Shown: positions 2,641 to 52,931 of the stretch, piece after piece
Layout of the letters: the number at the start of each line of letters is the position of its first letter
How positions within the stretch are numbered: the stretch's first letter is position 1
DNA from: a virus
Lineage: Duplodnaviria; Caudoviricetes
Length of the DNA: 52,931 bases
Virus record (IMG/VR): IMGVR_UViG_3300025849_000049
Coordinates: 1-52,931 of that record
Direction: 5' to 3' (one strand)
The notes under the pieces: model-generated
The model's input: the letters and a program-made list of their open reading frames with translations, nothing else
Databases searched by the model: none
What the model was told of the DNA's origin: nothing
Position numbers and translations under genes: made by a program

Positions 2641-5151
2641 ATGGCAACTGAACGTAATCCATACGACCTATCAGACAAATCAAAAGAATCGGGCATTGAT
2701 ATGAACATCGAAGACATTACGTCTGCCGATGCCATTATCTCTGTTGACCCTGAAACTGGAGAGATTGAGGTAGACCTTGAAGGCACAGCAGGTGAAGTAG
2801 AAATAGAACTTACCCTTGGTGACAACGAGGGTTTCTTTGAAAACCTTGTAGATTTAATTGACGAGGATACGCTATCTGAAATTGGAAACACAGTGATTGA
2901 TAAGTTCAATGCTGACAAAGACTCTCGCTCTGAGTGGGAATCAATGTTCGAGCGTGGCTTTGAACTTCTTGGTCTTAAGCTAGAAGATACAACGGAACCG
3001 TTTGAAGGTGCAGCCACTGCAGTACATCCACTGTTGATTGAGTCTGCTGTCAAGTTCCAAGCCAAAGCCTCTACCGAGTTGTTCCCCGCCAAAGGCCCAG
3101 TTAAGGCTCAGGTGTTAGGTGATGCAACCTTAGAGAAACAACAACAAGCAAACCGTGTACAAAACTTTATGAACTATCAGGTCACAACACAGATGCCTGA
3201 ATACTATGACGAGTTTGAGCGTATGCTTTTCCACTTACCACTTATTGGTTCTGCGTTTAAAAAGGTTTATTATGATGCAAGTCTTGACCGTCCTGTTAGC
3301 GAGTTTGTGCCTATTGACCAGTTTTATGTTTCTTACTATGCGACTGACCTTCGTAGAGCAGACCGTTACACTCATGTTATATATCGCAGTCCTGTGGACT
3401 TGGCTAGGCAGATAGATGCTGGAATGTATGCAGACATAGAGCTGCCTACAGCTGGTATTCCTACACTATCAGGCATGGCCGAAAAGATGGACAGTGTTCT
3501 TGGCTTGTCTCCTGCTTCAGACAATGACCCACAGTATGTATTGCTTGAACAACATTGCTACTTAGAGATTGAAGAAGACAAGATGCACTCAGGTAAAGTT
3601 GCCTGCCCTTACATTGTAACAGTAGAAGAAACCACTGGTGCTGTATTGTCTATCCGCCGCAACTGGGAAGAAGGAGACGATAAGTATGTCAAGAAAATGC
3701 ACTTCACGCACTACAGATATGTTCCTGGTTTTGGTTTTTACGGCTTGGGTCTTATTCACTTCCTTGGTAATCTTACTATGTCTGCTACTGCTGCAATGCG
3801 TAGCCTACTTGATGCTGGCCAGTTCGCTAACTTACCAGGGGGTTTCAAAGCTAAGGGCGTCCGTATGGTCGGAGATAACGACCCTATTGCGCCAGGGGAA
3901 TTTAAAGAAGTAGAAGCAACAGGCATGGACTTGTCTAAGTCTATTATCCCGCTTCCGTTTAAGGAACCATCGCAGACTCTGTTCAACATGCTTACCTTTG
4001 TAACGCAGACAGGTCAGAAGTTTGCTGACAGCACCGAACAAGTAATCGCAGACAGCGGAGGCTATGGTCCCGTTGGAACAACCTTGGCATTGTTAGAAGC
4101 TTCAAGTAAGTTCTTCTCTTCAATTCATAAGAGACTACACAAGGCACAGGGAGACGAGTTTAAAATCTTGGCTCGTATTGACTACGAGTATCTGCCGCCT
4201 GAATATCCTTATGACCTTCCTGGAGTTTCCGAAAAGATTCTTAAGAAAGACTTTGATGGCCGTGTAGATATTGTACCAGTGTCTGACCCTAACATTCCTT
4301 CGAATGCTCAGCGCATGATGCTTATTCAAATGGTACAGAATATTGCTCAACAATCAGAGCCAGGTATGTTTGACATGGAAGCTATTAACCGTATGCTTCT
4401 AACAACAGCTAATGTCCCCGACATTGATACACTGATGCCTCGCAAAGACGAGGCACAACCTCAAGACCCAATGACTGATATCTTGGCTGTGTCTCAGAAC
4501 AAACCAATTCAAGCCTTTATAGGTCAGAACCACGATGCACATATTTCGTTCAAGGGAGCTTTCTTACAAGACCCAGGCAATCAACAGAATCCATTCTTTA
4601 AGCAGATGGCTTCAGCCCTACAGGCTAACATTTCTGAGCATATGCTTCTGAAGTATAAAGGACAGATTGATGGCCTGTCTATGCAGGCGGCTCAGAATCC
4701 ACAGATAGCTGCTCAACTTTCTCAGATGCCTAATCCAGAAGAAATGGCAAACGCACAGGCTGCCCAGCAAATCATGCAGACAAACATGCAGATGGCTCAG
4801 GGAGGTGGCATGTCTCCTGAACAACAGATGCTTCAGATTGAAACACAGAAGCTACAAGTTGAACAACAAAAAAATCAAACCCAAGCCGCTAAGGCTCAGG
4901 TGGATGCTTCACTTAAGCAACGTGACCTTGACCTGAAAGAGCAAAAGATTGTTATTGATGCTCAAGAGGCAGGGATGCAGTCTAACATGAAAGCATATCA
5001 AAAGGAAGAAGACCGTAATTCTAAAAGAGCTTTAAAGGCTATGGACGTTCTGGCTGACTTAATTAAAACACAAGAAGCCAACGGCATTAAAGAAGTACAG
5101 CTTACTACTGATATGTTGAAGGCTATTATGAAGAGTGAGCAAGGTAACTAA
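2641..5151 (+). CDS. Portal protein with Gln-rich coiled-coil C-terminus
   Basis: 836 aa after terL; FYGLGLIH-type portal motif; long helical C-terminus like P22-type portal barrels. Confidence 0.9.
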   Translation: MATERNPYDLSDKSKESGIDMNIEDITSADAIISVDPETGEIEVDLEGTAGEVEIELTLGDNEGFFENLVDLIDEDTLSEIGNTVIDKFNADKDSRSEWESMFERGFELLGLKLEDTTEPFEGAATAVHPLLIESAVKFQAKASTELFPAKGPVKAQVLGDATLEKQQQANRVQNFMNYQVTTQMPEYYDEFERMLFHLPLIGSAFKKVYYDASLDRPVSEFVPIDQFYVSYYATDLRRADRYTHVIYRSPVDLARQIDAGMYADIELPTAGIPTLSGMAEKMDSVLGLSPASDNDPQYVLLEQHCYLEIEEDKMHSGKVACPYIVTVEETTGAVLSIRRNWEEGDDKYVKKMHFTHYRYVPGFGFYGLGLIHFLGNLTMSATAAMRSLLDAGQFANLPGGFKAKGVRMVGDNDPIAPGEFKEVEATGMDLSKSIIPLPFKEPSQTLFNMLTFVTQTGQKFADSTEQVIADSGGYGPVGTTLALLEASSKFFSSIHKRLHKAQGDEFKILARIDYEYLPPEYPYDLPGVSEKILKKDFDGRVDIVPVSDPNIPSNAQRMMLIQMVQNIAQQSEPGMFDMEAINRMLLTTANVPDIDTLMPRKDEAQPQDPMTDILAVSQNKPIQAFIGQNHDAHISFKGAFLQDPGNQQNPFFKQMASALQANISEHMLLKYKGQIDGLSMQAAQNPQIAAQLSQMPNPEEMANAQAAQQIMQTNMQMAQGGGMSPEQQMLQIETQKLQVEQQKNQTQAAKAQVDASLKQRDLDLKEQKIVIDAQEAGMQSNMKAYQKEEDRNSKRALKAMDVLADLIKTQEANGIKEVQLTTDMLKAIMKSEQGN

Positions 5152-37460: not shown

Positions 37461-37678
37461 AATATATAATGCTCCAACTGTGTGTAACCACCTATGTGCT
37501 TACCGTTAACTTTAATCTGCGGTACTGTTTTCTCGTCAGGGAACAGCTCTTTAAATTCTTTAGCCGTAACCTCTGTGCCGATGCCGTAGTAACCGTAGGG
37601 AATCTTTCGAACCCTACAGAATACTACGGCGTCTCTACAATACTTGCAGCCTTTCTGCCCGTATATCTCTACCCTCAT
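37457..37678 (-). CDS. grx: Glutaredoxin
   Basis: CKYC active site, TVPQI, IGGY. Confidence 0.9.
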   Translation of the reverse strand: MRVEIYGQKGCKYCRDAVVFCRVRKIPYGYYGIGTEVTAKEFKELFPDEKTVPQIKVNGKHIGGYTQLEHYIL

Positions 37679-39588
37679 GTCAGGTCAACAACCTCGCAAC
37701 CATCCGAACTACAGGCCAATGTTTGTGCGCCTGATGTGTTGTCTTCCATCTCGTACTCAGAGAGCTTAGCCCAATCAATCTTCTTGGGCATCTTAGCAGC
37801 AGCTTCCTTGTAGGTAGCCTTGTCACAGTCCTGATAGGGAGCTTGTGCATAGGTGTGGTCGCTGTGTGGCAGAAAGGATACACCAGAGCAGATGTCAAAG
37901 TTATCGAACACCCAAGCACCTACGTTCATCCACTCCTCGTCTCGCACCGTAATGGTAACGGATGGCTTATGCTCACACCACTCCAATGCGTAGGTCTTCC
38001 ATAGCTCCAGCTGCTCGATGGCAGTCATGTCGTTACGTGTTACCGCATTGTCAGGTGACTTGGTCGGGAAGCTAAACACCGTGGTGCTGTCAGGCTTCAT
38101 AACACAAGGCTCAGCTGGGATGCCTGCGTCTGTAAGGAACTGTGTTAGCGGGTCTTTGTTATCACCCCGTACAGTTCGGATATAATATTCGCTATGACGT
38201 GCATGAATGCCAGAAGCGCTATCAACAAGCTGCGACACAGTACCTGAAGGCTTAACACAAGTGATGGCCGCAGATGCACTAATTCCAAACTGCTCAGCAT
38301 AATCCCTGTTTGTTTGTACAGCAGTGTCACGAAGCTTGTTAAGTACTTTCTTAGATGGGTTGCTAGTAATTTCATTGTCCATAATACCTGTCAGGCTTAC
38401 ACCCAACAGCCTTTCTTCTTCTGTGTTCTTACGCCAGATAGGACGAAGATACGGCATATCTGTAAACGTAGATTGAATTGTTCCAAGTATAGAGGCAAGA
38501 CGTACTTTGTTTGCCAGTGTTTTCTCAGTGTCGGTTGGCCGCACCACAACCTCAGTCAGGTTGCAGAACTGATAAGGCCGCAGGATAATCTCACTGCACG
38601 GGTTAGTCCCCCACTCCTTGCCTGTTTCACGGCGACCATTGCGCTTGACGTGTTCGTCTGCAGCGATTCGGCTAAAGATACCACGCTCACCAGACTTGGA
38701 CTCGACCAAGGACAACCACTCACGCATGAATGTTTCCATATCAGGCTTGTCGGTGTAGGCTACAGAGTTATTAGCCAAGGCACGTTGCCCTTCGTTTTCC
38801 CACCATTGACCAGACTTAGCGTGACGCATACGGTCATCCGACAGGTTAGACAAACTAATCATAGCGGAGCGGCGTACACCACCTACTACAACTACCTCGC
38901 CAATCTTACACATGATGTCGTGGCACTCAACGCTGTTAAGCTTACGCCCTGCTGCGCCTTTGAACTTGGCTACAACAAAGTTGAACAGGTCGTTCAGGGG
39001 GTCAGGCCCAGAGGCACGGCCACCAAATGTCTTGAGGCGTTCACCTGCTGCACGAATCTTGGACAAGTCCCACTTAGGCACGTCCCCTGTGTACAGGCCG
39101 CTGACTACTTTGCGTAGTGCCTTAGCCCAGCCTTCCTTGCTGTCTTGCACAACGATAAGGTCTTCGCTATCTCTGATGTCTTCTGGTACTACAGGGAGCT
39201 TGCTGATGGCCTGACGCTCAACAGAGAAGCCTACACCTGTACCACACAGCAAGATAAACATGGCCTCGTCAAAGGCACGAGGGTGGTCAACAGGCAGGTA
39301 ACTACAGTTGTATACACATGTGTTGTCACGCTCAGCAGCTGGGCCTGCAGTCATCAAGGCTCGCATAGAAGGCATGACCTCTAGGTTAAGGATGGCATCC
39401 TCAAGCTCGTTAAGCGTCTTGCCCTCTAGGTCTGATGGACGTACGATGTTGTCAATGAAACGGCCTACGGTTTCACCCCAGGTTTCCCTGCGTCCCTCGT
39501 CATCTAGCCAACGGGCATATCGTGACGTTGCAATGAATGTCTGGTAGTCCGATGGTAGGTAATTAGTCAATGTATTTTGGTTCGTCAT
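37675..39588 (-). CDS. nrdJ: Class II (cobalamin-dependent) ribonucleotide reductase
   Basis: PSMRAL, GGVRRSA, TNPCSE, CNLTE, VKPSGT, C-terminal Cys pair; no beta subunit gene seen. Confidence 0.92.
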   Translation of the reverse strand: MTNQNTLTNYLPSDYQTFIATSRYARWLDDEGRRETWGETVGRFIDNIVRPSDLEGKTLNELEDAILNLEVMPSMRALMTAGPAAERDNTCVYNCSYLPVDHPRAFDEAMFILLCGTGVGFSVERQAISKLPVVPEDIRDSEDLIVVQDSKEGWAKALRKVVSGLYTGDVPKWDLSKIRAAGERLKTFGGRASGPDPLNDLFNFVVAKFKGAAGRKLNSVECHDIMCKIGEVVVVGGVRRSAMISLSNLSDDRMRHAKSGQWWENEGQRALANNSVAYTDKPDMETFMREWLSLVESKSGERGIFSRIAADEHVKRNGRRETGKEWGTNPCSEIILRPYQFCNLTEVVVRPTDTEKTLANKVRLASILGTIQSTFTDMPYLRPIWRKNTEEERLLGVSLTGIMDNEITSNPSKKVLNKLRDTAVQTNRDYAEQFGISASAAITCVKPSGTVSQLVDSASGIHARHSEYYIRTVRGDNKDPLTQFLTDAGIPAEPCVMKPDSTTVFSFPTKSPDNAVTRNDMTAIEQLELWKTYALEWCEHKPSVTITVRDEEWMNVGAWVFDNFDICSGVSFLPHSDHTYAQAPYQDCDKATYKEAAAKMPKKIDWAKLSEYEMEDNTSGAQTLACSSDGCEVVDLT

Positions 39589-42933: not shown

Positions 42934-42950
42934 GTTGTTACCCCCTGATG

Positions 42951-43024
42951 CGAACGCAGCAGGATTTGAACCTGCGACCTACAGCTTAGAAGGCTGTTGC
43001 TCTATCCAGCTGAGCTATGCGTCC
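42951..43024 (-). tRNA. tRNA-Arg (anticodon UCU)
   Basis: GGACGCA/TGCGTTC acceptor, GCTC/GAGC D arm, ACAGC-CTTCTAA-GCTGT, GCAGG-TTCAAAT-CCTGC; CCA not encoded. Confidence 0.95.
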
Positions 43025-43891: not shown

Positions 43892-45544
43892 TTAGTGGGT
43901 GTCAGACCAAGATAAGCCAGTCTTATACTCACAATCTAGGGGGCAATTAACCTTGAGGGATTCCTCTGTAAGCTTCATTGCCTCCTTAGTAATAGCACCG
44001 AAGGCTTCTTCCTGTCCCTTACGTACCTCGAATTGGTATTCGTCATGTACACTTGCAACAAGGTTGAAGTCCAGCTTTGCTTTAGTGGCTAGGATAATAA
44101 TAAACTTAAGCCATTCCTTACATACAATTGCACCAGCACCTTGCAATAGCAGGTTGAGTGCAGCATGTTTGTTTCGTATGGTAAGGACACGACCATCCAA
44201 GCCAATGAGATAACCTCTGCCAGACAACTTGTCTACCTTAGAGCGTAGTGCTTTCAAGGCAGGCATGTTGTTTAAGAAGTTATCAATCAGACGCTGACCA
44301 TCCTTGGCTGTGCCATTGACGACCTGTCCAATCTTACCAGCACCAGCACCATACAAGAAGGCATAGATAAATGTCTTTGCGTTGTCCCTTGTAGGTAGCC
44401 CTGCTGCTGTTTGGTTAGCGGTATGAACATCACCCTCTACAACTTCCTTGGTGTAGGCTTCGTCGTTCATGTAGTGTGCTAACATCCGTAGCTCAAGTCC
44501 TGATGCGTCAGTACCCAGCAGTGTGTAGTCGTCACTAGATACTTTCCACAATGCCCTGCACTCCTTACCATAGGGTGAGTAGACAGCAGGAACCTGTGCC
44601 ATGTTGGGTGACGAGTGAGACATACGACCAGTGATTGTACCCAGCGTCATAACCCTGCCGTGTACCCTGTCGTTCTCGTCTGCTACAGCAATCCAAGATT
44701 TAATCTGGGACACACGCTTCTCAAGCGTAAGGTATGTAGCAATCAACTGAGCTTGGGGGATGTCGATTTTCTCAAGAATCTCTTCACCGACAATCGGCTG
44801 TCCCTTCTCAGTAAACTTCTTAGGCTTCCAACCCAAGTTCATAAGGCGTTGTGCAATCTGTTGGCGTGAGCCTGGGTTGAACACAGTAACCTTATCCTTT
44901 AATCTTTTACCTGTCTTCTCAGATACTCTAATCTCTGTAATAGGTTTAAAGACTTCGTGAAGTTCTTCTCTAAGTTTGTGAGACTTATCTGATAGCTTTG
45001 CAACTAGCAGGCTTGCCTCCTTCACGTCAAGTGTGAAGCCGTTCTGTTCTTGCTTGTCAACCACTGCACGAATCTGATGCTCAAGCTTAATGCTACGAGC
45101 AGAGAAGCCCTTGAGTGTAGGGACAAGAGCCTTATACACCTTAGCTGTTAGGTCTACATCCCTGATGCAATACTTAAGCATCTCGTCTGTGTAACCTGAG
45201 AAGTCGTGGAAGTCTATCTTCCCGAAGCCAAGTGTCTTACCCCAAGCGTCAAGTGAATGACCACCGTCTCGCACTGGGCTGGCAAGCTGCGACATGATAA
45301 GTGTGTCACGTATCTTAGCCAGTGGTATCTCCACACCAAGCAATCTCTTGAGGACAGGGGCATCAAAGGACACTCCGTTGTGCATGATAACAATGTCTGC
45401 ACTCTCAATAAGATTCTTGGCGTGGTGAACATGGTCTGGTTTGTAAGTGTAGATGCGGTCTTCGTCGATGTCCTTAGCTACAATACAATAAATAGTAGTA
45501 GCATCTAGGCTGTCTGTTTCAATGTCTACTACTAATCTTTTCAT
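43892..45544 (-). CDS. polA: Family A DNA polymerase with 3'-5' exonuclease
   Basis: DIET, HNGVSFD, DASGLELR, RDNAKTFIYAFLYG, VHDE. Confidence 0.96.
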   Translation of the reverse strand: MKRLVVDIETDSLDATTIYCIVAKDIDEDRIYTYKPDHVHHAKNLIESADIVIMHNGVSFDAPVLKRLLGVEIPLAKIRDTLIMSQLASPVRDGGHSLDAWGKTLGFGKIDFHDFSGYTDEMLKYCIRDVDLTAKVYKALVPTLKGFSARSIKLEHQIRAVVDKQEQNGFTLDVKEASLLVAKLSDKSHKLREELHEVFKPITEIRVSEKTGKRLKDKVTVFNPGSRQQIAQRLMNLGWKPKKFTEKGQPIVGEEILEKIDIPQAQLIATYLTLEKRVSQIKSWIAVADENDRVHGRVMTLGTITGRMSHSSPNMAQVPAVYSPYGKECRALWKVSSDDYTLLGTDASGLELRMLAHYMNDEAYTKEVVEGDVHTANQTAAGLPTRDNAKTFIYAFLYGAGAGKIGQVVNGTAKDGQRLIDNFLNNMPALKALRSKVDKLSGRGYLIGLDGRVLTIRNKHAALNLLLQGAGAIVCKEWLKFIIILATKAKLDFNLVASVHDEYQFEVRKGQEEAFGAITKEAMKLTEESLKVNCPLDCEYKTGLSWSDTH

Positions 45545-46427: not shown

Positions 46428-48083
46428 TCACAGGTAATCCCCCACGTCTACTGTGCCAAAGTCTTCCTTGTTAGGGTCGTCAATCTCTGTCATGCGGCCA
46501 GTGTCACGGTCATACAACAGGTAGGCACCGACGCCAGTCTCACCAGCATAGCGGTTCTTAAGGACACGCACTGTGGTTGTGTTGGCCACGATGGGGTCGG
46601 TAGCCTGCTGGTCACGCTCCATTGCAATCACAGCGTCACTGATTTGTGCAATACTGTGTGAGCCACGGAGCATAGACAGGCTAATCTCCTTGCCCTCTTC
46701 CTGACCCTTGTCACCAGAGGCACGGCGTAAGTGGGAGACAAGCAGGACACAGCACTGCGTCTCTTCTACAAGAGAGCGTAGGTTGGTCATCATCTTGTCA
46801 ATGTTGCGCCGCTCGTCGTCACCCTCAAGACCTGACACCAAGATGGATAGGTGGTCAAGGATAATAAACTTACAGTCAAGAGCCTTAATCATGTAACGAA
46901 TACGAGCAAGTATCTCGTCCGTCTGGATGGAACCGAAGTGGTCGAATGCAAACACACGGCCTGTGCCTACAGTGGCTTCCTCGTATGCTTTTAGTTTCTC
47001 ATGTGGCACAGTCTCACGAACCTCTTGAATGTATAGACGCTTGCTTGCCTCTACCGACATAAGGTGGAAGATAGTCTGCTTGACGTTCTCCTCAAGGCTG
47101 ACGATGCCGATGTTGTGCTTGGAGTTGTTGAGCAGGTGATGCTCTAGCTCTCGCATGATGCTTGACTTACCAGCACCAGTGCCAGCAGTGAAGGTGATAA
47201 GCTCACCAGTCCGCATCCCATACAGCATCTCGTTCAAGCCTTCGTAAGGGTAAGGCACACTCTCCTTGTCATCTGTTTCATACAGCCCCTCAAAGTTCTT
47301 GAGGCTTACGATACCTGCTGGAGTGTGTGGCTGTGCATCCCACCAACGCTGCATGAACTCTTCGGTCTTGCCGTGCTTGAGATACTCATTGGCATCCTTA
47401 GCCCGTAGCTTGACAATCTTACACTTGTTAGGCTCGAACAACTGAGCCACTGAAGCAGCCGCTTTTGCGCCGTGTTCGTCGTTGTCAAAGCATAGCACGA
47501 TGTTCTCGAACTTGTTGAGCCACTCGAACTGTGCCTTGCAATCCTTGAGTGCAGACTGTGCGCCGTTACGAACAGACACGGCAGGCCACTTGCTACCCAT
47601 CATCTGATAGGCAGACAAGGCATCAAGCTCACCCTCACAGATGGTAATGAACTTACCAGCCCGACCAAACAACTGCTGGCCGAACAAGGTGGCATGGGGC
47701 ATGACGCCCTCCGCATTGAATTGCTTGTTAGCAACGTGCCGCACCTTGTTGGCAACGTGATTGCCGTTGATGTCGTAGTATGGGTAGATGTGCTTGCCGT
47801 CTGTTTGTGTAACGCCGTAGGTCTTTGCAGCTTCTAGGCTGATGCTGCGGTCAGGGATGGCAGAGAACTGACCCTGGGACAGGGTAGCAGTGGCCTGTGC
47901 TGTGGGTAGGTTTACAACTGTGTTTTGCATTGGTGTGTGTCCTTCTTGGTTGGGTGATGGTGTAAACTTCTCGCAGACAAAGCAGTAGGCGTGGCCATCG
48001 TCGTAGTGGACGTTGCCATCGGATGAGCCACAAGACCCACACTCACCTCTGCTTGTTGCCTGTGCCTCATTTGTTGGCGGCAT
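46428..48083 (-). CDS. T7 gp4-like primase-helicase
   Basis: Zn ribbon CGSC...CFVC, TOPRIM EGELDA/FDND, AGTGAGKS, LDH, LRGS; start moved to 48083. Confidence 0.95.
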   Translation of the reverse strand: MPPTNEAQATSRGECGSCGSSDGNVHYDDGHAYCFVCEKFTPSPNQEGHTPMQNTVVNLPTAQATATLSQGQFSAIPDRSISLEAAKTYGVTQTDGKHIYPYYDINGNHVANKVRHVANKQFNAEGVMPHATLFGQQLFGRAGKFITICEGELDALSAYQMMGSKWPAVSVRNGAQSALKDCKAQFEWLNKFENIVLCFDNDEHGAKAAASVAQLFEPNKCKIVKLRAKDANEYLKHGKTEEFMQRWWDAQPHTPAGIVSLKNFEGLYETDDKESVPYPYEGLNEMLYGMRTGELITFTAGTGAGKSSIMRELEHHLLNNSKHNIGIVSLEENVKQTIFHLMSVEASKRLYIQEVRETVPHEKLKAYEEATVGTGRVFAFDHFGSIQTDEILARIRYMIKALDCKFIILDHLSILVSGLEGDDERRNIDKMMTNLRSLVEETQCCVLLVSHLRRASGDKGQEEGKEISLSMLRGSHSIAQISDAVIAMERDQQATDPIVANTTTVRVLKNRYAGETGVGAYLLYDRDTGRMTEIDDPNKEDFGTVDVGDYL

Positions 48084-48261
48084 AATATACTCCGAACTCC
48101 TTGCCCTCGTCATAGATGAAGAGCTTGTTGTTTACTGTCTCAGTCGTGAAGCCCATGCCCTTAGCCAATAAGGCACGAAAGCGGAGGAACTCGTCCCTGT
48201 CTTGGACGTTCTCCATGAACGCAGCGCCACACCCTTGTGTTTTATACATCATTCGATACAT
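48067..48261 (-). CDS. Hypothetical protein
   Basis: ORF tiles with neighbours; GAGG SD. Confidence 0.6.
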   Translation of the reverse strand: MYRMMYKTQGCGAAFMENVQDRDEFLRFRALLAKGMGFTTETVNNKLFIYDEGKEFGVYYAANK

Positions 48262-48373
48262 TTGAAACCTCTTTGATTGCTTCTGTGATTGTTATCTTGC
48301 GGTCAGAATTATTCTGCATTGTGATTGCCTTGCGGCGGATTGCTTTTTTCTTTTGCTTGTCTGTCTTAGTCAT
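48242..48373 (-). CDS. Unannotated 43-aa basic protein
   Basis: MTKTDKQKKKAIRRKAITMQNNSDRKITITEAIKEVSNVSNDV; GAGG SD. Confidence 0.55.
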   Translation of the reverse strand: MTKTDKQKKKAIRRKAITMQNNSDRKITITEAIKEVSNVSNDV

Positions 48374-48587
48374 TATAAACCTCGTCTGTTTCTTTATCTA
48401 GTTTCGTTCCATCGCCATCGTAATACCACGACCTGTCGGCAGGGTCAAGCTCTATGCCTACATGAAACCTACCCAGTGCCTTCTTAAGCGTGGCAGCTTT
48501 CTTTGTATACCACTCTGGTGTTCGGCGTTTCTCTTGCTTCATACGGCGGACATTATCTCTGTGCCGTTTAATGCGCTTGTCGTCCAT
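48366..48587 (-). CDS. Hypothetical protein
   Basis: AAGGAG SD; tiles with neighbours. Confidence 0.6.
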   Translation of the reverse strand: MDDKRIKRHRDNVRRMKQEKRRTPEWYTKKAATLKKALGRFHVGIELDPADRSWYYDGDGTKLDKETDEVYND

Positions 48588-48593
48588 TGTATA

Positions 48594-48785
48594 TCACTCC
48601 TTGTGTAGGAAGGCAAGTATTAAAGTTGAACCGCCTTCGTTTTGTTTACGCTTGTCATAGACATAGTCGTAACCCATCTTCATTTTCATACGCTCAAGCC
48701 ATTGCTCTGCGTCCTCGTCGTAGACAAACAGCCTACCAAAGAACCCGTCCATCTTCTTGAGCTTACGAAGAGACATCTGTTTCAT
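48594..48785 (-). CDS. Hypothetical protein
   Basis: AGGAG SD; ATGA overlap. Confidence 0.6.
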   Translation of the reverse strand: MKQMSLRKLKKMDGFFGRLFVYDEDAEQWLERMKMKMGYDYVYDKRKQNEGGSTLILAFLHKE

Positions 48786-48961
48786 TCGTCATGCTCCTGC
48801 TCAGAAAGACCAAAGGCAAAGCTCACGCTGTCTGAGTGCAGGTCGTTTGCCTCTTCTCGTGCCATCTTCTTTGCTTCCTTCTGACTGTATCCTTCGTCAA
48901 GATACTGGTGATACAAGTCTCTAAAGAGTTGCTTCTTATCTTGTTCCCATAGGTTGCTCAT
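48782..48961 (-). CDS. Unannotated 59-aa protein
   Basis: MSNLWEQDKKQLFRDLYHQYLDEGYSQKEAKKMAREEA...; fills the gap. Confidence 0.7.
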   Translation of the reverse strand: MSNLWEQDKKQLFRDLYHQYLDEGYSQKEAKKMAREEANDLHSDSVSFAFGLSEQEHDE

Positions 48962-48969
48962 ATCATGTC

Positions 48970-49044
48970 CTAACTATATAGAAGCACTAATAATGCTACA
49001 AGTGCTATAATAAAATATGTAAGTCGCTTCTCTTGTTTGTTCAT
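48970..49044 (-). CDS. Unannotated 24-aa TM peptide
   Basis: MNKQEKRLTYFIIALVALLVLLYS. Confidence 0.45.
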   Translation of the reverse strand: MNKQEKRLTYFIIALVALLVLLYS

Positions 49045-49045
49045 C

Positions 49046-49465
49046 TTAATCCCACCTATAAAAAATGTGGTTGTCAATCGTTGCTACCTTGGTAAAGGTA
49101 TGCGCCCAGCTTGGCATCACGTAGTCTGCATGATAGTGTGTTGCTCCGTCAGCGAATGAATGTGTCCATCCGTTGAGAACCATTGCGGCAATCTCTTGTG
49201 AGCGGATGAACGCTTTTTCATTGCGTGGTTCGTCAGAGATGCCATCACAATACCAACTGAACTGGCACCTGTTCTTGGCTGGCTTGCTCTCCCAGTGTAT
49301 GCCCTGTGTAATCACAGCACACACATCGTCAGGGAAGCGGTCATCTTCTACACGATTAAGCACAACCTGTGCCACAGCAAGTTGCCCCATTGTGCTTTCG
49401 TTTCGTGCTTCGTGATAGACATTCATTGCCATACACATAAGCGGTGTTGCTAATAGCTCAATCAT
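49046..49465 (-). CDS. SleB-like cell wall hydrolase (Hydrolase_2)
   Basis: NVYHEARNE...AVAQVVLNRV...CQFSW...GATHYHA...HIFY. Confidence 0.9.
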   Translation of the reverse strand: MIELLATPLMCMAMNVYHEARNESTMGQLAVAQVVLNRVEDDRFPDDVCAVITQGIHWESKPAKNRCQFSWYCDGISDEPRNEKAFIRSQEIAAMVLNGWTHSFADGATHYHADYVMPSWAHTFTKVATIDNHIFYRWD

Positions 49466-49467
49466 TT

Positions 49468-49653
49468 CTAATACCCGTCGTTCCAGATTTGCTCACGTTC
49501 CCACTCCTTGCCAAGGCGGTCATAGTCCTTGGCTCGAATGTGCTTTGCCTTGCTCGACTCCTTGAAGCCACGGCTATTTGTCTTTGTTTCCCAGATACTT
49601 AGGGCGTTATCCTCATACCAAGGCTTGAACATTTTCGTGTGTTTATTCGGCAT
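49468..49653 (-). CDS. Hypothetical protein
   Basis: Tiles with neighbours. Confidence 0.55.
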   Translation of the reverse strand: MPNKHTKMFKPWYEDNALSIWETKTNSRGFKESSKAKHIRAKDYDRLGKEWEREQIWNDGY

Positions 49654-49804
49654 CTTCTGCGTTTCCTTTTCTTGTGTAGCTTCCCTTGCCCTTCTTGGGC
49701 TGGATTATTTGTGGTTGAAACTGCCCTGCTTCCAGAGCCTTTGCGTTACTGTTGCGGCGGCGCTTCGTCTGGTTCGCCCTCGTCCTCTTGCTTGCTCTGG
49801 TCAT
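49643..49804 (-). CDS. Unannotated 53-aa ArfA-like protein
   Basis: ...NSNAKALEAGQFQPQIIQPKKGKGSYTRKG...; matches the ArfA KKGKGSYxRK signature. Confidence 0.65.
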   Translation of the reverse strand: MTRASKRTRANQTKRRRNSNAKALEAGQFQPQIIQPKKGKGSYTRKGNAEDAE

Positions 49805-50051
49805 TGTTCACCACTAATTGCAGGTTGGGTTGGTGGATAACAGCTTCCTTTTGGGTCATGTCAACCACGTTGATTGTGTAAGGGTCGAACTCTACGTCAA
49901 GGACATACTCGTCCTCTGTTAAGTCTCGCACCATCACATACTCAAGCCAGTCAAGTGGCATTGCTTCTTCGCCAATCAAAGGCCACCAAGGTTGTGTGCC
50001 TACGTCTTCTAGGTCTGTGTCAATTACAAATGTTACTTCATAGCGAGCCAT
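49746..50051 (-). CDS. Acidic hypothetical protein
   Basis: AAGGAG SD. Confidence 0.65.
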   Translation of the reverse strand: MARYEVTFVIDTDLEDVGTQPWWPLIGEEAMPLDWLEYVMVRDLTEDEYVLDVEFDPYTINVVDMTQKEAVIHQPNLQLVVNNDQSKQEDEGEPDEAPPQQ

Positions 50052-50053
50052 CT

Positions 50054-50212
50054 CTAGCTCCTTTCGTTAAATGCTTTAATAAAATATTCTTTCAGCCAAT
50101 TCTTAAACTCAGGCCGCTTGTCAAGGAAGTCAATGGTCTGTCGGTGGGACAACTGATTGCCCATTAGCCAACGTCTCAGTGCTTCGTGTTTCTTTTCCTT
50201 GTCATCCGTCAT
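50054..50212 (-). CDS. Unannotated 52-aa protein
   Basis: MTDDKEKKHEALRRWLMGNQLSHRQTIDFLDKRPEFKNWLKEYFIKAFNERS. Confidence 0.55.
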   Translation of the reverse strand: MTDDKEKKHEALRRWLMGNQLSHRQTIDFLDKRPEFKNWLKEYFIKAFNERS

Positions 50213-50315
50213 GCCGTGCTTTCATAAAGTTATAGACATTGATGGTTGTGTTTAGCCAGACACCTATCAGGATGCCCACCTCAATATACGATATTGTTAC
50301 AGGGATGTCAAACAT
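50202..50315 (-). CDS. Unannotated 37-aa hydrophobic peptide
   Basis: MFDIPVTISYIEVGILIGVWLNTTINVYNFMKARHDG; TAATG coupling. Confidence 0.5.
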   Translation of the reverse strand: MFDIPVTISYIEVGILIGVWLNTTINVYNFMKARHDG

Positions 50316-50779
50316 TATTTAACCCCCAGTGCATATAGAAGTTCTTCGTCAGTCAGGGTGTCAGTGTCGTCAGACATGAATGCTTCCATCATATCGTAAT
50401 CGGTCAAGGGCATTGCGAAGAACCCAGCTTCGGGTGCTGGCAGCGAGGCGTCTCTCCAAGTTACCATGTCCTTTATCTGCTCAAGGCTAGACATGCAGTC
50501 GATGCTTTCGCCCTCTATAACTGACACAACTATGTCGTCAGTGCCAAGGATAAGGCCACGCCCTGCCAATGGCTGAGAGCAACCCTTGATGTTGAAGAAC
50601 ACTTGGTTCTCCACATACAATCCTTCGTCATCTACATACAAGGTGTCTTGACCTACGCCTTCAAGGTATACTGAGGTGAACAATTCACATCCAAGTAGTG
50701 TGTAGATGTCCTTGTAGTCTCCTGAATAGTCAACGATTTCAATGGTTTGTTTTGGTGTATCAATTAGTATGGCTTTCAT
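50315..50779 (-). CDS. DUF3846-like early protein
   Basis: LYVDDEGL...LAGRGLILG. Confidence 0.65.
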   Translation of the reverse strand: MKAILIDTPKQTIEIVDYSGDYKDIYTLLGCELFTSVYLEGVGQDTLYVDDEGLYVENQVFFNIKGCSQPLAGRGLILGTDDIVVSVIEGESIDCMSSLEQIKDMVTWRDASLPAPEAGFFAMPLTDYDMMEAFMSDDTDTLTDEELLYALGVK

Positions 50780-50788
50780 GTCATGTTC

Positions 50789-51022
50789 CTATATGGTTGC
50801 TGTTAGTCGGTCAATGTTATTCACTGCATCTTCTGCGAGCCATTCAATCATGTCCCACACAACTTCGGGCAGGTCATTCTCGTATTGTTCGCAGACATGG
50901 AATGCTATATACTCTAGCACTTGCTTGTCGTTCATGTTGATGTAATCCATAGGCAACTCGTTGGTCAGGAAGTGACCGCTTGCCCATCGGACGGCGTTAG
51001 TGGTAGGTAATAGTCGTGTCAT
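50789..51022 (-). CDS. Hypothetical early protein
   Basis: GGAG SD; tiles with neighbours. Confidence 0.6.
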   Translation of the reverse strand: MTRLLPTTNAVRWASGHFLTNELPMDYINMNDKQVLEYIAFHVCEQYENDLPEVVWDMIEWLAEDAVNNIDRLTATI

Positions 51023-51206
51023 CTGTAGTCTCCATTACTTCGTAAATCTTAAAGTCACCGCTTGCAGGTTCTTCTTGCCACTCACCAGTGTGAGCCAGGA
51101 ACTCAGCAAAGCTATGCTCGTCCATGTCTAGCGGTATATCTACCTCGTCGAACTCTACAAACATGTCAATAGACATCGTGGCTATGCCTCTATACTTTTT
51201 AGCCAT
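50997..51206 (-). CDS. Hypothetical early protein
   Basis: AAGGAG SD; acidic. Confidence 0.6.
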   Translation of the reverse strand: MAKKYRGIATMSIDMFVEFDEVDIPLDMDEHSFAEFLAHTGEWQEEPASGDFKIYEVMETTDDTTITYH

Positions 51207-51732
51207 TGGCTAACTCCTTCAATTCTTCTTGGTCATTTTCCTGCTGGTATTCTTCCCAGTCAGGCACAACATATGGGAAGGCATCAAGCACATTCTCTGG
51301 GATGTATTCCTCTGGGTGTTGGTCTGTTAGAGTTTCCCAAGTGTTGTCAATGGATGCCTCGCCATCACCTACGGCGTGACCAATGAAGCAAGCCCCGCCT
51401 TCTTCGTAATACAGGTCAAAGGTGAAGCCGTGCTTTCGCATAGCTGTTTCCAGTGCCGCTACTGGCGGTGACCAAGCTGTCGTAAATGAGACAGTCAGGG
51501 TGTCGCCATCAAGCGAGGCATGGTATACATCAAAGATGTCCCACTTGGTTCCCCAGTTTTGGACGCACCAGTCATAATCCCACTGGTAGTTTGTTTCTTC
51601 TGGGAAAGGCACGAGCATAGACAAGAAGTCTACCTCGTAGCTATCGGCCTGTTTCAATTCGTTCATCAGGCTTTGCAATAGTCCTGCGCTGTCTGATTTG
51701 ATAGTCAATTCGTTGTTACAATAGTTAGGCAT
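51199..51732 (-). CDS. DUF1281/Api92-like protein
   Basis: MPNYCNN, YDWCVQNWGTKWD, FTTAWSPP. Confidence 0.8.
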   Translation of the reverse strand: MPNYCNNELTIKSDSAGLLQSLMNELKQADSYEVDFLSMLVPFPEETNYQWDYDWCVQNWGTKWDIFDVYHASLDGDTLTVSFTTAWSPPVAALETAMRKHGFTFDLYYEEGGACFIGHAVGDGEASIDNTWETLTDQHPEEYIPENVLDAFPYVVPDWEEYQQENDQEELKELANG

Positions 51733-51753
51733 TGGTGTTCTCCTTTGCTGCCT

Positions 51754-51915
51754 TCAAAATATAATTGCCAGTATAACTGACATAACTATTATTGTCAATA
51801 GCGTGGCGGGGTTTAACATCAGGAGCATCAAGCCTTGCATGATTGCTTCCCACATAGTCATGGCGAGAAACACAAGAAACAAGATGCCCAGAATGGTGGC
51901 GATGATTGTAAACAT
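51754..51915 (-). CDS. Small two-TM membrane protein
   Basis: Almost entirely hydrophobic; TAATG coupling; start moved to 51915. Confidence 0.55.
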   Translation of the reverse strand: MFTIIATILGILFLVFLAMTMWEAIMQGLMLLMLNPATLLTIIVMSVILAIIF

Positions 51916-52103
51916 TAGTCTTCGTCTCCTTGTCCCCACCAGCCACAGGCATAGAGGGCGTTTCGTGCTTCGTTTTGTGCCGCCATAATGTCTTGGCCAG
52001 TGGTGGGGTATTTCTTATAATCGTAGTCATAAGCTGCAAGGTGCAGGTCACACAGCGTCTCTGCTGAGACAAGCACCATCTGTTTTTCATTCGTCTTTGT
52101 CAT
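51915..52103 (-). CDS. Hypothetical early protein
   Basis: GAGG SD; tiles with neighbours. Confidence 0.55.
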   Translation of the reverse strand: MTKTNEKQMVLVSAETLCDLHLAAYDYDYKKYPTTGQDIMAAQNEARNALYACGWWGQGDED

Positions 52104-52404
52104 CTTCTACCTCTTCTACTTCTGCTTCAACTTCTATTGAGTGTATCATAGGCGGCTCGCTACTGTCAATAGAAACATCATCGCCGCTATTGAAGGAAAT
52201 ACTATCCAAAGCACGTTCGATGTAGTCACTTGCCCCGTTCTCAAGGGTTTCTTGCATATCGTCGAGAAAGTTTTCTTCGTCGTCCGCCTCGCCTTCCAAG
52301 ACACCTTGCCCAGCTAAATCATACATAGGTATTTCGTATGAAATCTCTACAGTTGCTGTGGCATAGCCACGAACAACACCATCTACTATTTCAAACTTAG
52401 TCAC
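52087..52404 (-). CDS. Highly acidic early protein
   Basis: Likely GTG start at 52404 behind AAGGAG; Asp/Glu-rich. Confidence 0.65.
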   Translation of the reverse strand: MTKFEIVDGVVRGYATATVEISYEIPMYDLAGQGVLEGEADDEENFLDDMQETLENGASDYIERALDSISFNSGDDVSIDSSEPPMIHSIEVEAEVEEVEDDKDE

Positions 52405-52717
52405 GGGCAAACTCCTTCCACATTCCATTAATTTTAGACCGCCAAGAGCCTTGGACATACTGCGACTCGCATAAGTCTAGGGCAATGTCCCTAACCTTCC
52501 AGACTGGTAAGCCTGTGGCGGCATGTATCTTCTCATACATTAGGTCGGTCATCTTTAGCTCGTAGTCGTCGCCATAGTAAACCTCCATGCCCTTCTGGCA
52601 GAAGCCATCATAGTCTGTAAGCACGACCATGGCATTAAAGACTTGGGTTTTATTTTCGGCTATGGCTTCTTCTTCAGCAAAGCTGGGTTCATATTCGATT
52701 GTATCTGGGTAACTCAT
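52397..52717 (-). CDS. Hypothetical early protein
   Basis: AAGGA SD; TAATG coupling. Confidence 0.65.
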   Translation of the reverse strand: MSYPDTIEYEPSFAEEEAIAENKTQVFNAMVVLTDYDGFCQKGMEVYYGDDYELKMTDLMYEKIHAATGLPVWKVRDIALDLCESQYVQGSWRSKINGMWKEFARD

Positions 52718-52920
52718 TATCGATTGTCCTTCGTGTAGATATATTCTTTGGCAAGCAATAGCAAATCTGCTACCTCATGTCCATTCAAAAGGCGGATGAC
52801 ATCGTCATCATAGTCCTCGCCCACCCAGCTTGTTGCCCAATACATACAAGGGACAAATCCCTTTGGGACACCATCCCGTCTGTAGACAAGTGCCACTTCT
52901 ACAAGGTGGCGAGGTGCCAT
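52717..52920 (-). CDS. Hypothetical early protein, start may lie beyond the window
   Basis: ORF at the window edge. Confidence 0.5.
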   Translation of the reverse strand: MAPRHLVEVALVYRRDGVPKGFVPCMYWATSWVGEDYDDDVIRLLNGHEVADLLLLAKEYIYTKDNR

Positions 52921-52931
52921 CTCTTGTGAGA

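Follow-up and report, generated by a model that had tools for sequence, protein, structure and literature searches.

The window, 52931 bases long, is an IMG/VR virus record in full, and its minus strand carries, at 49643..49804, a real phage gene for an ArfA-family protein of 53 residues. On balance, this protein is probably a working RF2-dependent ribosome-rescue factor. The sequence-only reading had proposed a 53-aa ORF at 49643-49804 with an ArfA-like role. The ORF agrees exactly, and all the motif pieces quoted for it occur in its translation, which in the ORF listing is MTRASKRTRANQTKRRRNSNAKALEAGQFQPQIIQPKKGKGSYTRKGNAEDAE, then TAA. Likewise, the stretch of E. coli ArfA given in that reading agrees with the ArfA chains in the PDB. 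As for the interpretation as a rescue factor, the real conserved ORF, the family and the stop-ended form stand. The gene is not of a new kind: homologues are already annotated in phages, and SAR11 chromosomes have the short stop-ended form too.

The protein has a basic N-terminus, followed by N18, A21-K22-A23-L24, F29 and I33-I34. Its C-terminal half consists of K38-G-K-G-S-Y43-T-R45-K46-G47 and then an acidic end, NAEDAE. The net charge is about +10 (14 Lys/Arg vs 4 Asp/Glu). The start at 49804 is the only plausible one, because no other in-frame ATG, GTG or TTG lies upstream of the conserved motifs. It is preceded by a Shine-Dalgarno-like GGTGA, presumably complementary to the 3' end of the 16S rRNA. 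Neither the GGTGA nor the ATG varies between the window and any of the 10 related loci, one of which has only 8 bases upstream. Both neighbouring genes share bases with the ORF. The acidic tail of the 101-aa upstream ORF covers its first 59 bases in a different frame, and this neighbour measures 100-101 aa in the 8 related loci containing all of it. On the other side, the 61-aa downstream ORF, found in 10/10 related loci, has its ATG 8 bases ahead of the ArfA-like stop. The resulting overlap of 11 bases suggests coupled translation. The coordinates are collected in Table 1.

Table 1. Positions of the ArfA-family ORF, its surroundings in the window and the ArfA-family ORFs located in other records.
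Feature	Position	Strand	Remarks
Large terminase	719-2260	plus	
Portal	2641-5151	plus	
Ribonucleotide reductase	37675-39588	minus	
tRNA-Arg (anticodon TCT), single	42950-43024		among replication genes
DNA polymerase	43892-45544	minus	
Primase/helicase	46428-48113	minus	
Cell-wall hydrolase gene	49046-49465		PF07486
61-aa ORF, downstream neighbour	49468..49653	minus	no family over threshold (Pfam, NCBIfam, PHROGs)
ArfA-family ORF, 53 codons	49643..49804	minus	ATG 49804-49802, TAA 49645-49643
101-aa ORF, upstream neighbour	49746..50051	minus	no family in Pfam/PHROGs
GGTGA, Shine-Dalgarno-like	49808..49812	minus	3 bases 5' of the ATG
Nearest upstream sigma-70-like promoter match	50283..50311	minus	TTGACA, 17-base spacer, TATATT; 11/12
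Further sigma-70-like match heading the small-gene block	51770-51798	minus	consensus, 11/12
Further sigma-70-like match heading the small-gene block	52140-52169	minus	consensus, 10/12
SAR11 ArfA-family ORF	L042 3998-4126		between Trans_reg_C regulator gene and convergent PfkB and HhH-GPD genes
SAR11 ArfA-family ORF	L054 3995-4111		between Trans_reg_C regulator gene and convergent PfkB and HhH-GPD genes
Caulobacter phage Cr30, unannotated 50-aa ArfA-family ORF	L002 1495-1647 (KF301602.1)		PF03889, 27.2 bits

The homology to ArfA is well supported by sequence comparison and extends past the basic motif. The protein matches Pfam PF03889 with 27.0 bits (E 3e-6, residues 29-48), where the curated cut-off is 25.5. 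For a single sequence this margin is small (1.5 bits). A six-frame PF03889 search of the whole 52931-base record gave one candidate only, this ORF (E 4.1e-7, 26 bits, over the cut-off). NCBIfam had no match for the protein, and PHROGs gave a weak match to an unnamed family. In a PDB sequence search at E<=10, all 6 matches were ArfA, with weak single-sequence E values (0.026-0.061).

A word-index homologue search found no candidate with three shared 5-residue words, whereas searching 1.84 billion representative proteins exhaustively gave 10 relatives at E<=0.001. They are 40-97 aa long, 42-52% identical in the alignment, and all present the same motif set. Together with the window protein they make up profile A1 (11 members). 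Against the PDB ArfA chains, A1 reached E values of 4.6e-9 to 8.8e-9, ungapped over about 40 residues. PF03889 was matched by 11/11 members at E<=0.01, and K38, G39, K40, Y43, R45 and K46 are invariant across the profile. We also compared A1 with 11 beta/gamma ArfA genes (Neisseria, Alishewanella, Rheinheimera, Arsukibacterium, Salinicola) using hhalign. The probability was 98.8%, with E 7e-17 over 40 columns. The HMM check named in the sequence-only reading is thus borne out by PF03889 over its cut-off, and A1 and hhalign agree with it.

The mechanism of E. coli ArfA offers a frame for these residues. According to a review (PMC8012679), the ArfA C-terminus lies in the mRNA entry channel via redundant basic residues, residues 15-24 form a short helix, and RF2 is recruited by F25 and the strand Q27-E30. 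On the ribosome, 46-48 ArfA residues are ordered, and a 40-residue form has no activity. The phage protein and E. coli ArfA (YhdL; PF03889; ribosome-RF2 complexes 5MDV, 5MGP, 5U4I, 5H5U, 7OJ0) are both small basic peptides. They align ungapped over about 40 residues, and they have in common the K-K-G-K-G-S-Y-x-R-K-G motif and an Asn 20 residues ahead of it. With an offset of +4, F25 falls on F29, V29-E30 on I33-I34, K34-Y39 on K38-Y43, and R41-K42-G43 on R45-K46-G47. The channel motif K-G-K-G-S-Y-x-R-K-G is therefore aligned to ArfA residue by residue. By sequence, the RF2-recruiting positions given in that review also match: an aromatic residue, F29, at F25, and hydrophobic residues, I33-I34, on the RF2-pairing strand Q27-E30. 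The aromatic position is F/Y in 37/39 distinct viral cores, and I/V dominate both strand positions. With the same offset, the 53 residues span the equivalent of E. coli residues 1-49. This length corresponds to the ribosome-ordered part of ArfA as the review describes it.

Other positions differ from E. coli ArfA. At the Ala18 position the phage protein has Lys22, in pairwise and profile alignments, instead of a small residue, and an invariant Ala stands one residue earlier. The K-H motif, through which ArfA and BrfA bind a pocket that lies within the mRNA entry channel (PMC8012679), is absent, with N48-A49 at the aligned place. This motif is also absent from the 11 aligned beta/gamma ArfA sequences, so it does not define the family. 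The phage protein differs further in being phage-encoded and in its acidic C-terminal end.

We considered whether the ORF could be a chance open frame within the overlap of two real genes, untranslated. It is short, it overlaps both neighbours, and its score is near the Pfam threshold. Nevertheless, this explanation is extremely improbable. The ORF is intact (53 codons, identical start and stop) in 10/10 related IMG/VR contigs, with a protein identity of 87-100%. Taken alone, this conservation would be weak evidence, because the related contigs are similar throughout. Among the 11 nucleotide sequences (8 distinct), 26/162 columns are variable. For the codon differences, each of the 8 distinct sequences was compared with every other, and these pairs are non-independent events. 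Synonymous change is commonest in the ArfA frame of all frames. In the unshared part, the synonymous:nonsynonymous counts are 61:99 in the ArfA frame vs 6:174 to 54:126 in the other five. In the 59-base overlap, they are 79:31 in the ArfA frame vs 15:83 in the frame of the upstream ORF. The invariant start and GGTGA also speak against a chance frame.

Divergent homologues are a stronger argument for a gene than the codon counts of close relatives. At 42-52% identity they retain the motif set. A profile-seeded IMG/VR scan found at least 193 viral contigs encoding a relative (80 of them kept), and relatives occur in cultured phages too. Contigs from RNA libraries of two studies span the whole ORF (X15 record 4 at 49540-50400; X16 records 9 and 10 at 49397-49855). 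These libraries may contain DNA and give no strand, and the contigs show presence in the library, not transcription. In the contigs from RNA runs X17 and X18 most of the ORF is uncovered, and they cannot demonstrate absence.

In E. coli, arfA encodes 72 aa and is made from a stem-loop-truncated non-stop mRNA, which leaves it gated by trans-translation (PMC8012679). This tmRNA-gated non-stop design is missing in the phage ORF, which terminates at a TAA of its own and lacks a hydrophobic tail, a hairpin and a terminator. The TAA comes 6 residues past R-K-G, and instead of hydrophobic residues the protein has six acidic-end residues (NAEDAE) there. Folding of the 231-base region was no better than that of shuffles (z -0.6). 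No terminator-like site was found in the ORF, and a search in and after it gave no inverted repeat of 8 or more. The sampled beta/gamma arfA genes carry variable hydrophobic tails. The earlier claim that the phage protein is naturally short and not tmRNA-gated fits the sequence.

The nearest upstream promoter match is a candidate transcript start for the gene, as a consensus match only. Two further matches head the small-gene block, and the region 48000-52931 contains 13 promoter-like sites vs 6.7 +/- 3.0 in shuffles. Early expression is plausible from the gene position, these promoter-like sites and the transcription of a homologue, gp30 of pelagiphage HTVC027P. PMC12753301 reports high gp30 transcription both early and late, at 3 h and at 12-15 h after infection.

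ArfA of this phage kind was previously known, being annotated in GenBank and named in two papers. A tblastn search against 50,697 phage records returned 11 records at E<=10. Four of them (Citromicrobium phage RXM; Brevundimonas phages Kikimora, Papperlapapp and Domovoi) name a ribosome-rescue factor, alternative or putative, in their annotation. Two belong to Caulobacter phage Cr30. A match in roseophage CRP-212 (E 5) was treated as chance, because it falls within a large structural gene. The recorded hosts of the phage ArfA carriers are Caulobacter, Brevundimonas, Erythrobacter, Citromicrobium and Pelagibacter, all of which we take to be Alphaproteobacteria. In the two papers, g10 of RXM (PMC8953757) and gp30 of HTVC027P (PMC12753301) are named ArfA. 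PF03889 scores 27.2-37.3 bits on four of five phage homologues, and 20.2 bits, below the cut-off, on gp30. Like the window gene, the phage ArfA genes (gp30, RXM g10, Kikimora, Papperlapapp, Domovoi, Cr30) are stand-alone ORFs, here of 36-60 aa, with the same motif set. On the other hand, their identity to the window protein is only 41-54%. Their backbones are unrelated and larger (104-357 kb vs 53 kb here), with only HTVC027P distantly related. Like the window ORF, the Cr30 ORF overlaps the end of its upstream annotated gene, and an annotated RNA ligase comes two genes after it. In our literature search, no phage or SAR11 ArfA turned up with a functional test.

The short stop-ended ArfA is not a phage invention, because this form is chromosomal in SAR11. 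With the pattern K-G-K-G-S-Y-[TSN]-R-K and one genome per species we obtained 103 relatives, of which 80 were kept; the pattern itself restricts what could be found. Pelagibacteraceae are the majority, and the remainder are mainly gamma- and betaproteobacteria. The SAR11 (Pelagibacteraceae) ORFs are mostly 38-42 aa long, with their own stop a few residues past the motif. Two of them reach 28.3 and 30.2 bits on PF03889, over the cut-off. In SAR11 the gene has a conserved housekeeping locus as its setting. In Pelagibacteraceae, 111/151 sampled genomes have a PF03889 match at E<=0.001, and 75/151 are over the cut-off; this tally takes in one unpublished genome, G548. In an even sample of the class to which SAR11 belongs, only 10/401 genomes match, 8 of them over the cut-off. 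Table 1 of PMC11633108 gives arfA in 0/2,376 Alphaproteobacteria.

An hhalign comparison of phage and SAR11 ArfA gave a probability of 98.8%. Both have N-x-x-A-K/R-x-L, the aromatic residue, I/V-V, K-G-K-G-S-Y and their own stop. They differ in the N-terminus, shorter in SAR11, and in the tail, basic in SAR11 and acidic in the window protein. SAR11 ArfA also differs in its conserved chromosomal locus, and its identity over the 30-residue core is 50-57% among the matches listed.

We described the subtype with signature counts on distinct 30-residue cores anchored on K-G-K-G-S-Y. This discrete count was preferred to a phylogeny, as 30-40 alignable columns are too few sites. Asn at -20 and Ala at -17 are present in 39/39 viral and 39/39 Pelagibacteraceae cores. 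Position -16, which is the Ala18 position, is Lys/Arg in 35/39 viral and 38/39 Pelagibacteraceae cores, and position -14 is Leu in 37/39 and 39/39, respectively. In the beta/gamma bacterial cores (n=11), Asn occupies -20, Ala is found at both -19 and -16 in 11/11, and Lys at -17 in 10/11. By these signatures, the window protein belongs to a subtype common to many viral contigs, to marine and alphaproteobacterial phages and to SAR11 chromosomes. A shifted helix register, or an adaptation to a different RF2, might explain how Lys/Arg is accommodated at the Ala18 position, beside the RF2 switch loop.

Taking E. coli ArfA as the model, when a ribosome has stalled at the 3' end of a broken message, the basic K-K-G-K-G-S-Y-x-R-K-G part would enter its empty mRNA entry channel. 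Ahead of this part, the hydrophobic stretch (F29, I33-I34) would pair with the host RF2. RF2 would then cut the peptide from the tRNA, and the ribosome would be recycled. Given the ordinary stop codon and the lack of an internal hairpin, transcription of the operon should be enough for the protein to be made, with no need for trans-translation to fail. The infected cell would gain an extra, untagged rescue capacity. From ArfA and the gene position, we infer the ribosome binding, the RF2 dependence, the timing and the benefit to the phage. A role against host mRNA decay or RNase-based defence, as the sequence-only reading had imagined, would be a further step. The tail of SmpB is a functional parallel: according to PMC8012679, the basic residues of its C-terminus, acting with tmRNA, probe the empty mRNA entry channel, and the substrate is likewise non-stop ribosomes. 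Unlike the proposed factor, tmRNA works without a release factor and marks the peptide for degradation. A predicted complex of the protein with Caulobacter RF2 (A1 alignment, no controls) scored 0.05 where the mark is 0.32, a value that speaks neither for nor against the pairing; ArfA meets RF2 on the ribosome.

The Lys at the Ala18 position, next to an intact channel-binding motif, raises the question of a blocker. Such a protein would bind the empty channel of stalled ribosomes without activating RF2, and would exclude tmRNA-SmpB and its tag, or the host rescue factors. PMC8012679 gives two precedents. E. coli ArfA with A18T binds and recruits RF2, yet the activation of RF2 is abolished by steric hindrance, and ArfA and SmpB occupy overlapping channel positions. 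However, the chromosomal gene of SAR11 has Ala-Lys/Arg-x-Leu as well, and it occupies a housekeeping locus and occurs in 111/151 genomes, where a blocker would be odd. The RF2-recruiting positions F29 and I33-I34 are conserved too. We regard the blocker as quite unlikely.

The high positive charge and the module fused into longer proteins would also agree with a general basic ribosome- or RNA-binding module in a non-rescue role, for example translation tuning or a structural or packaged protein. In IMG/VR, proteins of 117-163 aa hold the module between phrog_2423 and phrog_17747, with a long C-terminal extension. This role is unlikely for the window protein. Its similarity to ArfA is ungapped over about 40 columns and includes N18, L24, F29 and I33-I34, beyond the basic motif, and the window gene stands alone, with the length of the ribosome-ordered ArfA part given in the review (PMC8012679).

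A wider proposal than RF2-dependent rescue is that the phage/SAR11 form is a distinct ArfA subtype (N-x-x-A-K/R-x-L helix, ungated) that engages the RF switch loop differently from E. coli ArfA. Phages infecting Alphaproteobacteria of marine and fresh waters would use it as a constitutive bypass of trans-translation, to counter defences or to take over the host. They would thereby keep ribosomes free and nascent phage proteins untagged. It would be useful while host messages are destroyed or RNA-cutting defences are active, and would be more than a back-up. We hold this as a speculative idea, and doubtful in its full extent.

If the protein is active as a rescue factor, the phage supplies its own ungated form of it, and translation quality control joins the host processes that marine phages supplement. 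Relatives in so many viral contigs and in tractable cultured systems (Caulobacter phage Cr30, pelagiphage HTVC027P) make the viral need for rescue testable. The Lys/Arg at the Ala18 position is a natural variant for studying RF2 activation by ArfA. As a single finding the gene is modest, considering that its class is annotated in several phages and that the short stop-ended form exists in SAR11 too.

The record is classed linear, with a CheckV completeness estimate of 93%. Structural genes occupy the plus strand to about 32 kb, and replication and nucleotide genes the minus strand from 32 to 53 kb. After the replication genes comes a block of small ORFs with mostly unassigned functions. No tmRNA was found in the window, and the Rfam search gave no family except one tRNA. 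The nearest cultured phages are distant pelagiphages: the DNA polymerase is 48% identical to that of HTVC103P/104P, and the large terminase about 40% identical to that of HTVC023P/027P. A megablast of 48500-51500 against the phage collection gave no match, and in a distant blastn only the cell-wall hydrolase gene of two roseophages matched, at about 69% identity. The G+C content is 38-50% per 2-kb window, presumably above that of SAR11 phages. For this reason, a SAR11 host does not follow from the similarity to pelagiphages.

Some minor observations were made along the way. In many marine IMG/VR contigs, the ArfA-like module is fused inside the 117-163-aa proteins (L104 1387-1800; L107 1438-1800; L128 1480-1905; L164 1486-1962). 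These have the conserved C-terminal module phrog_17747, some also the N-terminal phrog_2423, both modules without assigned function, and Pfam finds only PF03889 in them. Such a long extension past the channel motif is unexpected for ArfA. Near the window gene, seven of the small neighbour ORFs scanned had no Pfam family; the others encode a DUF3846 protein (50315-50779) and a ferredoxin-like DUF1281_C (Api92-like) protein (51199-51732). In the cell-wall hydrolase gene, about 35-45 bases at 49229-49277 recur in many unrelated RNA-library contigs with unlike flanks. They are a conserved hydrolase motif or a repeat common to phages. Finally, X15 record 3, from an RNA library, skips 88 bases at 48961-49050, with 3 other letters between. 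This takes out the greater part of a hydrophobic ORF of 35 aa (48970-49077) and is probably a strain-level deletion variant.
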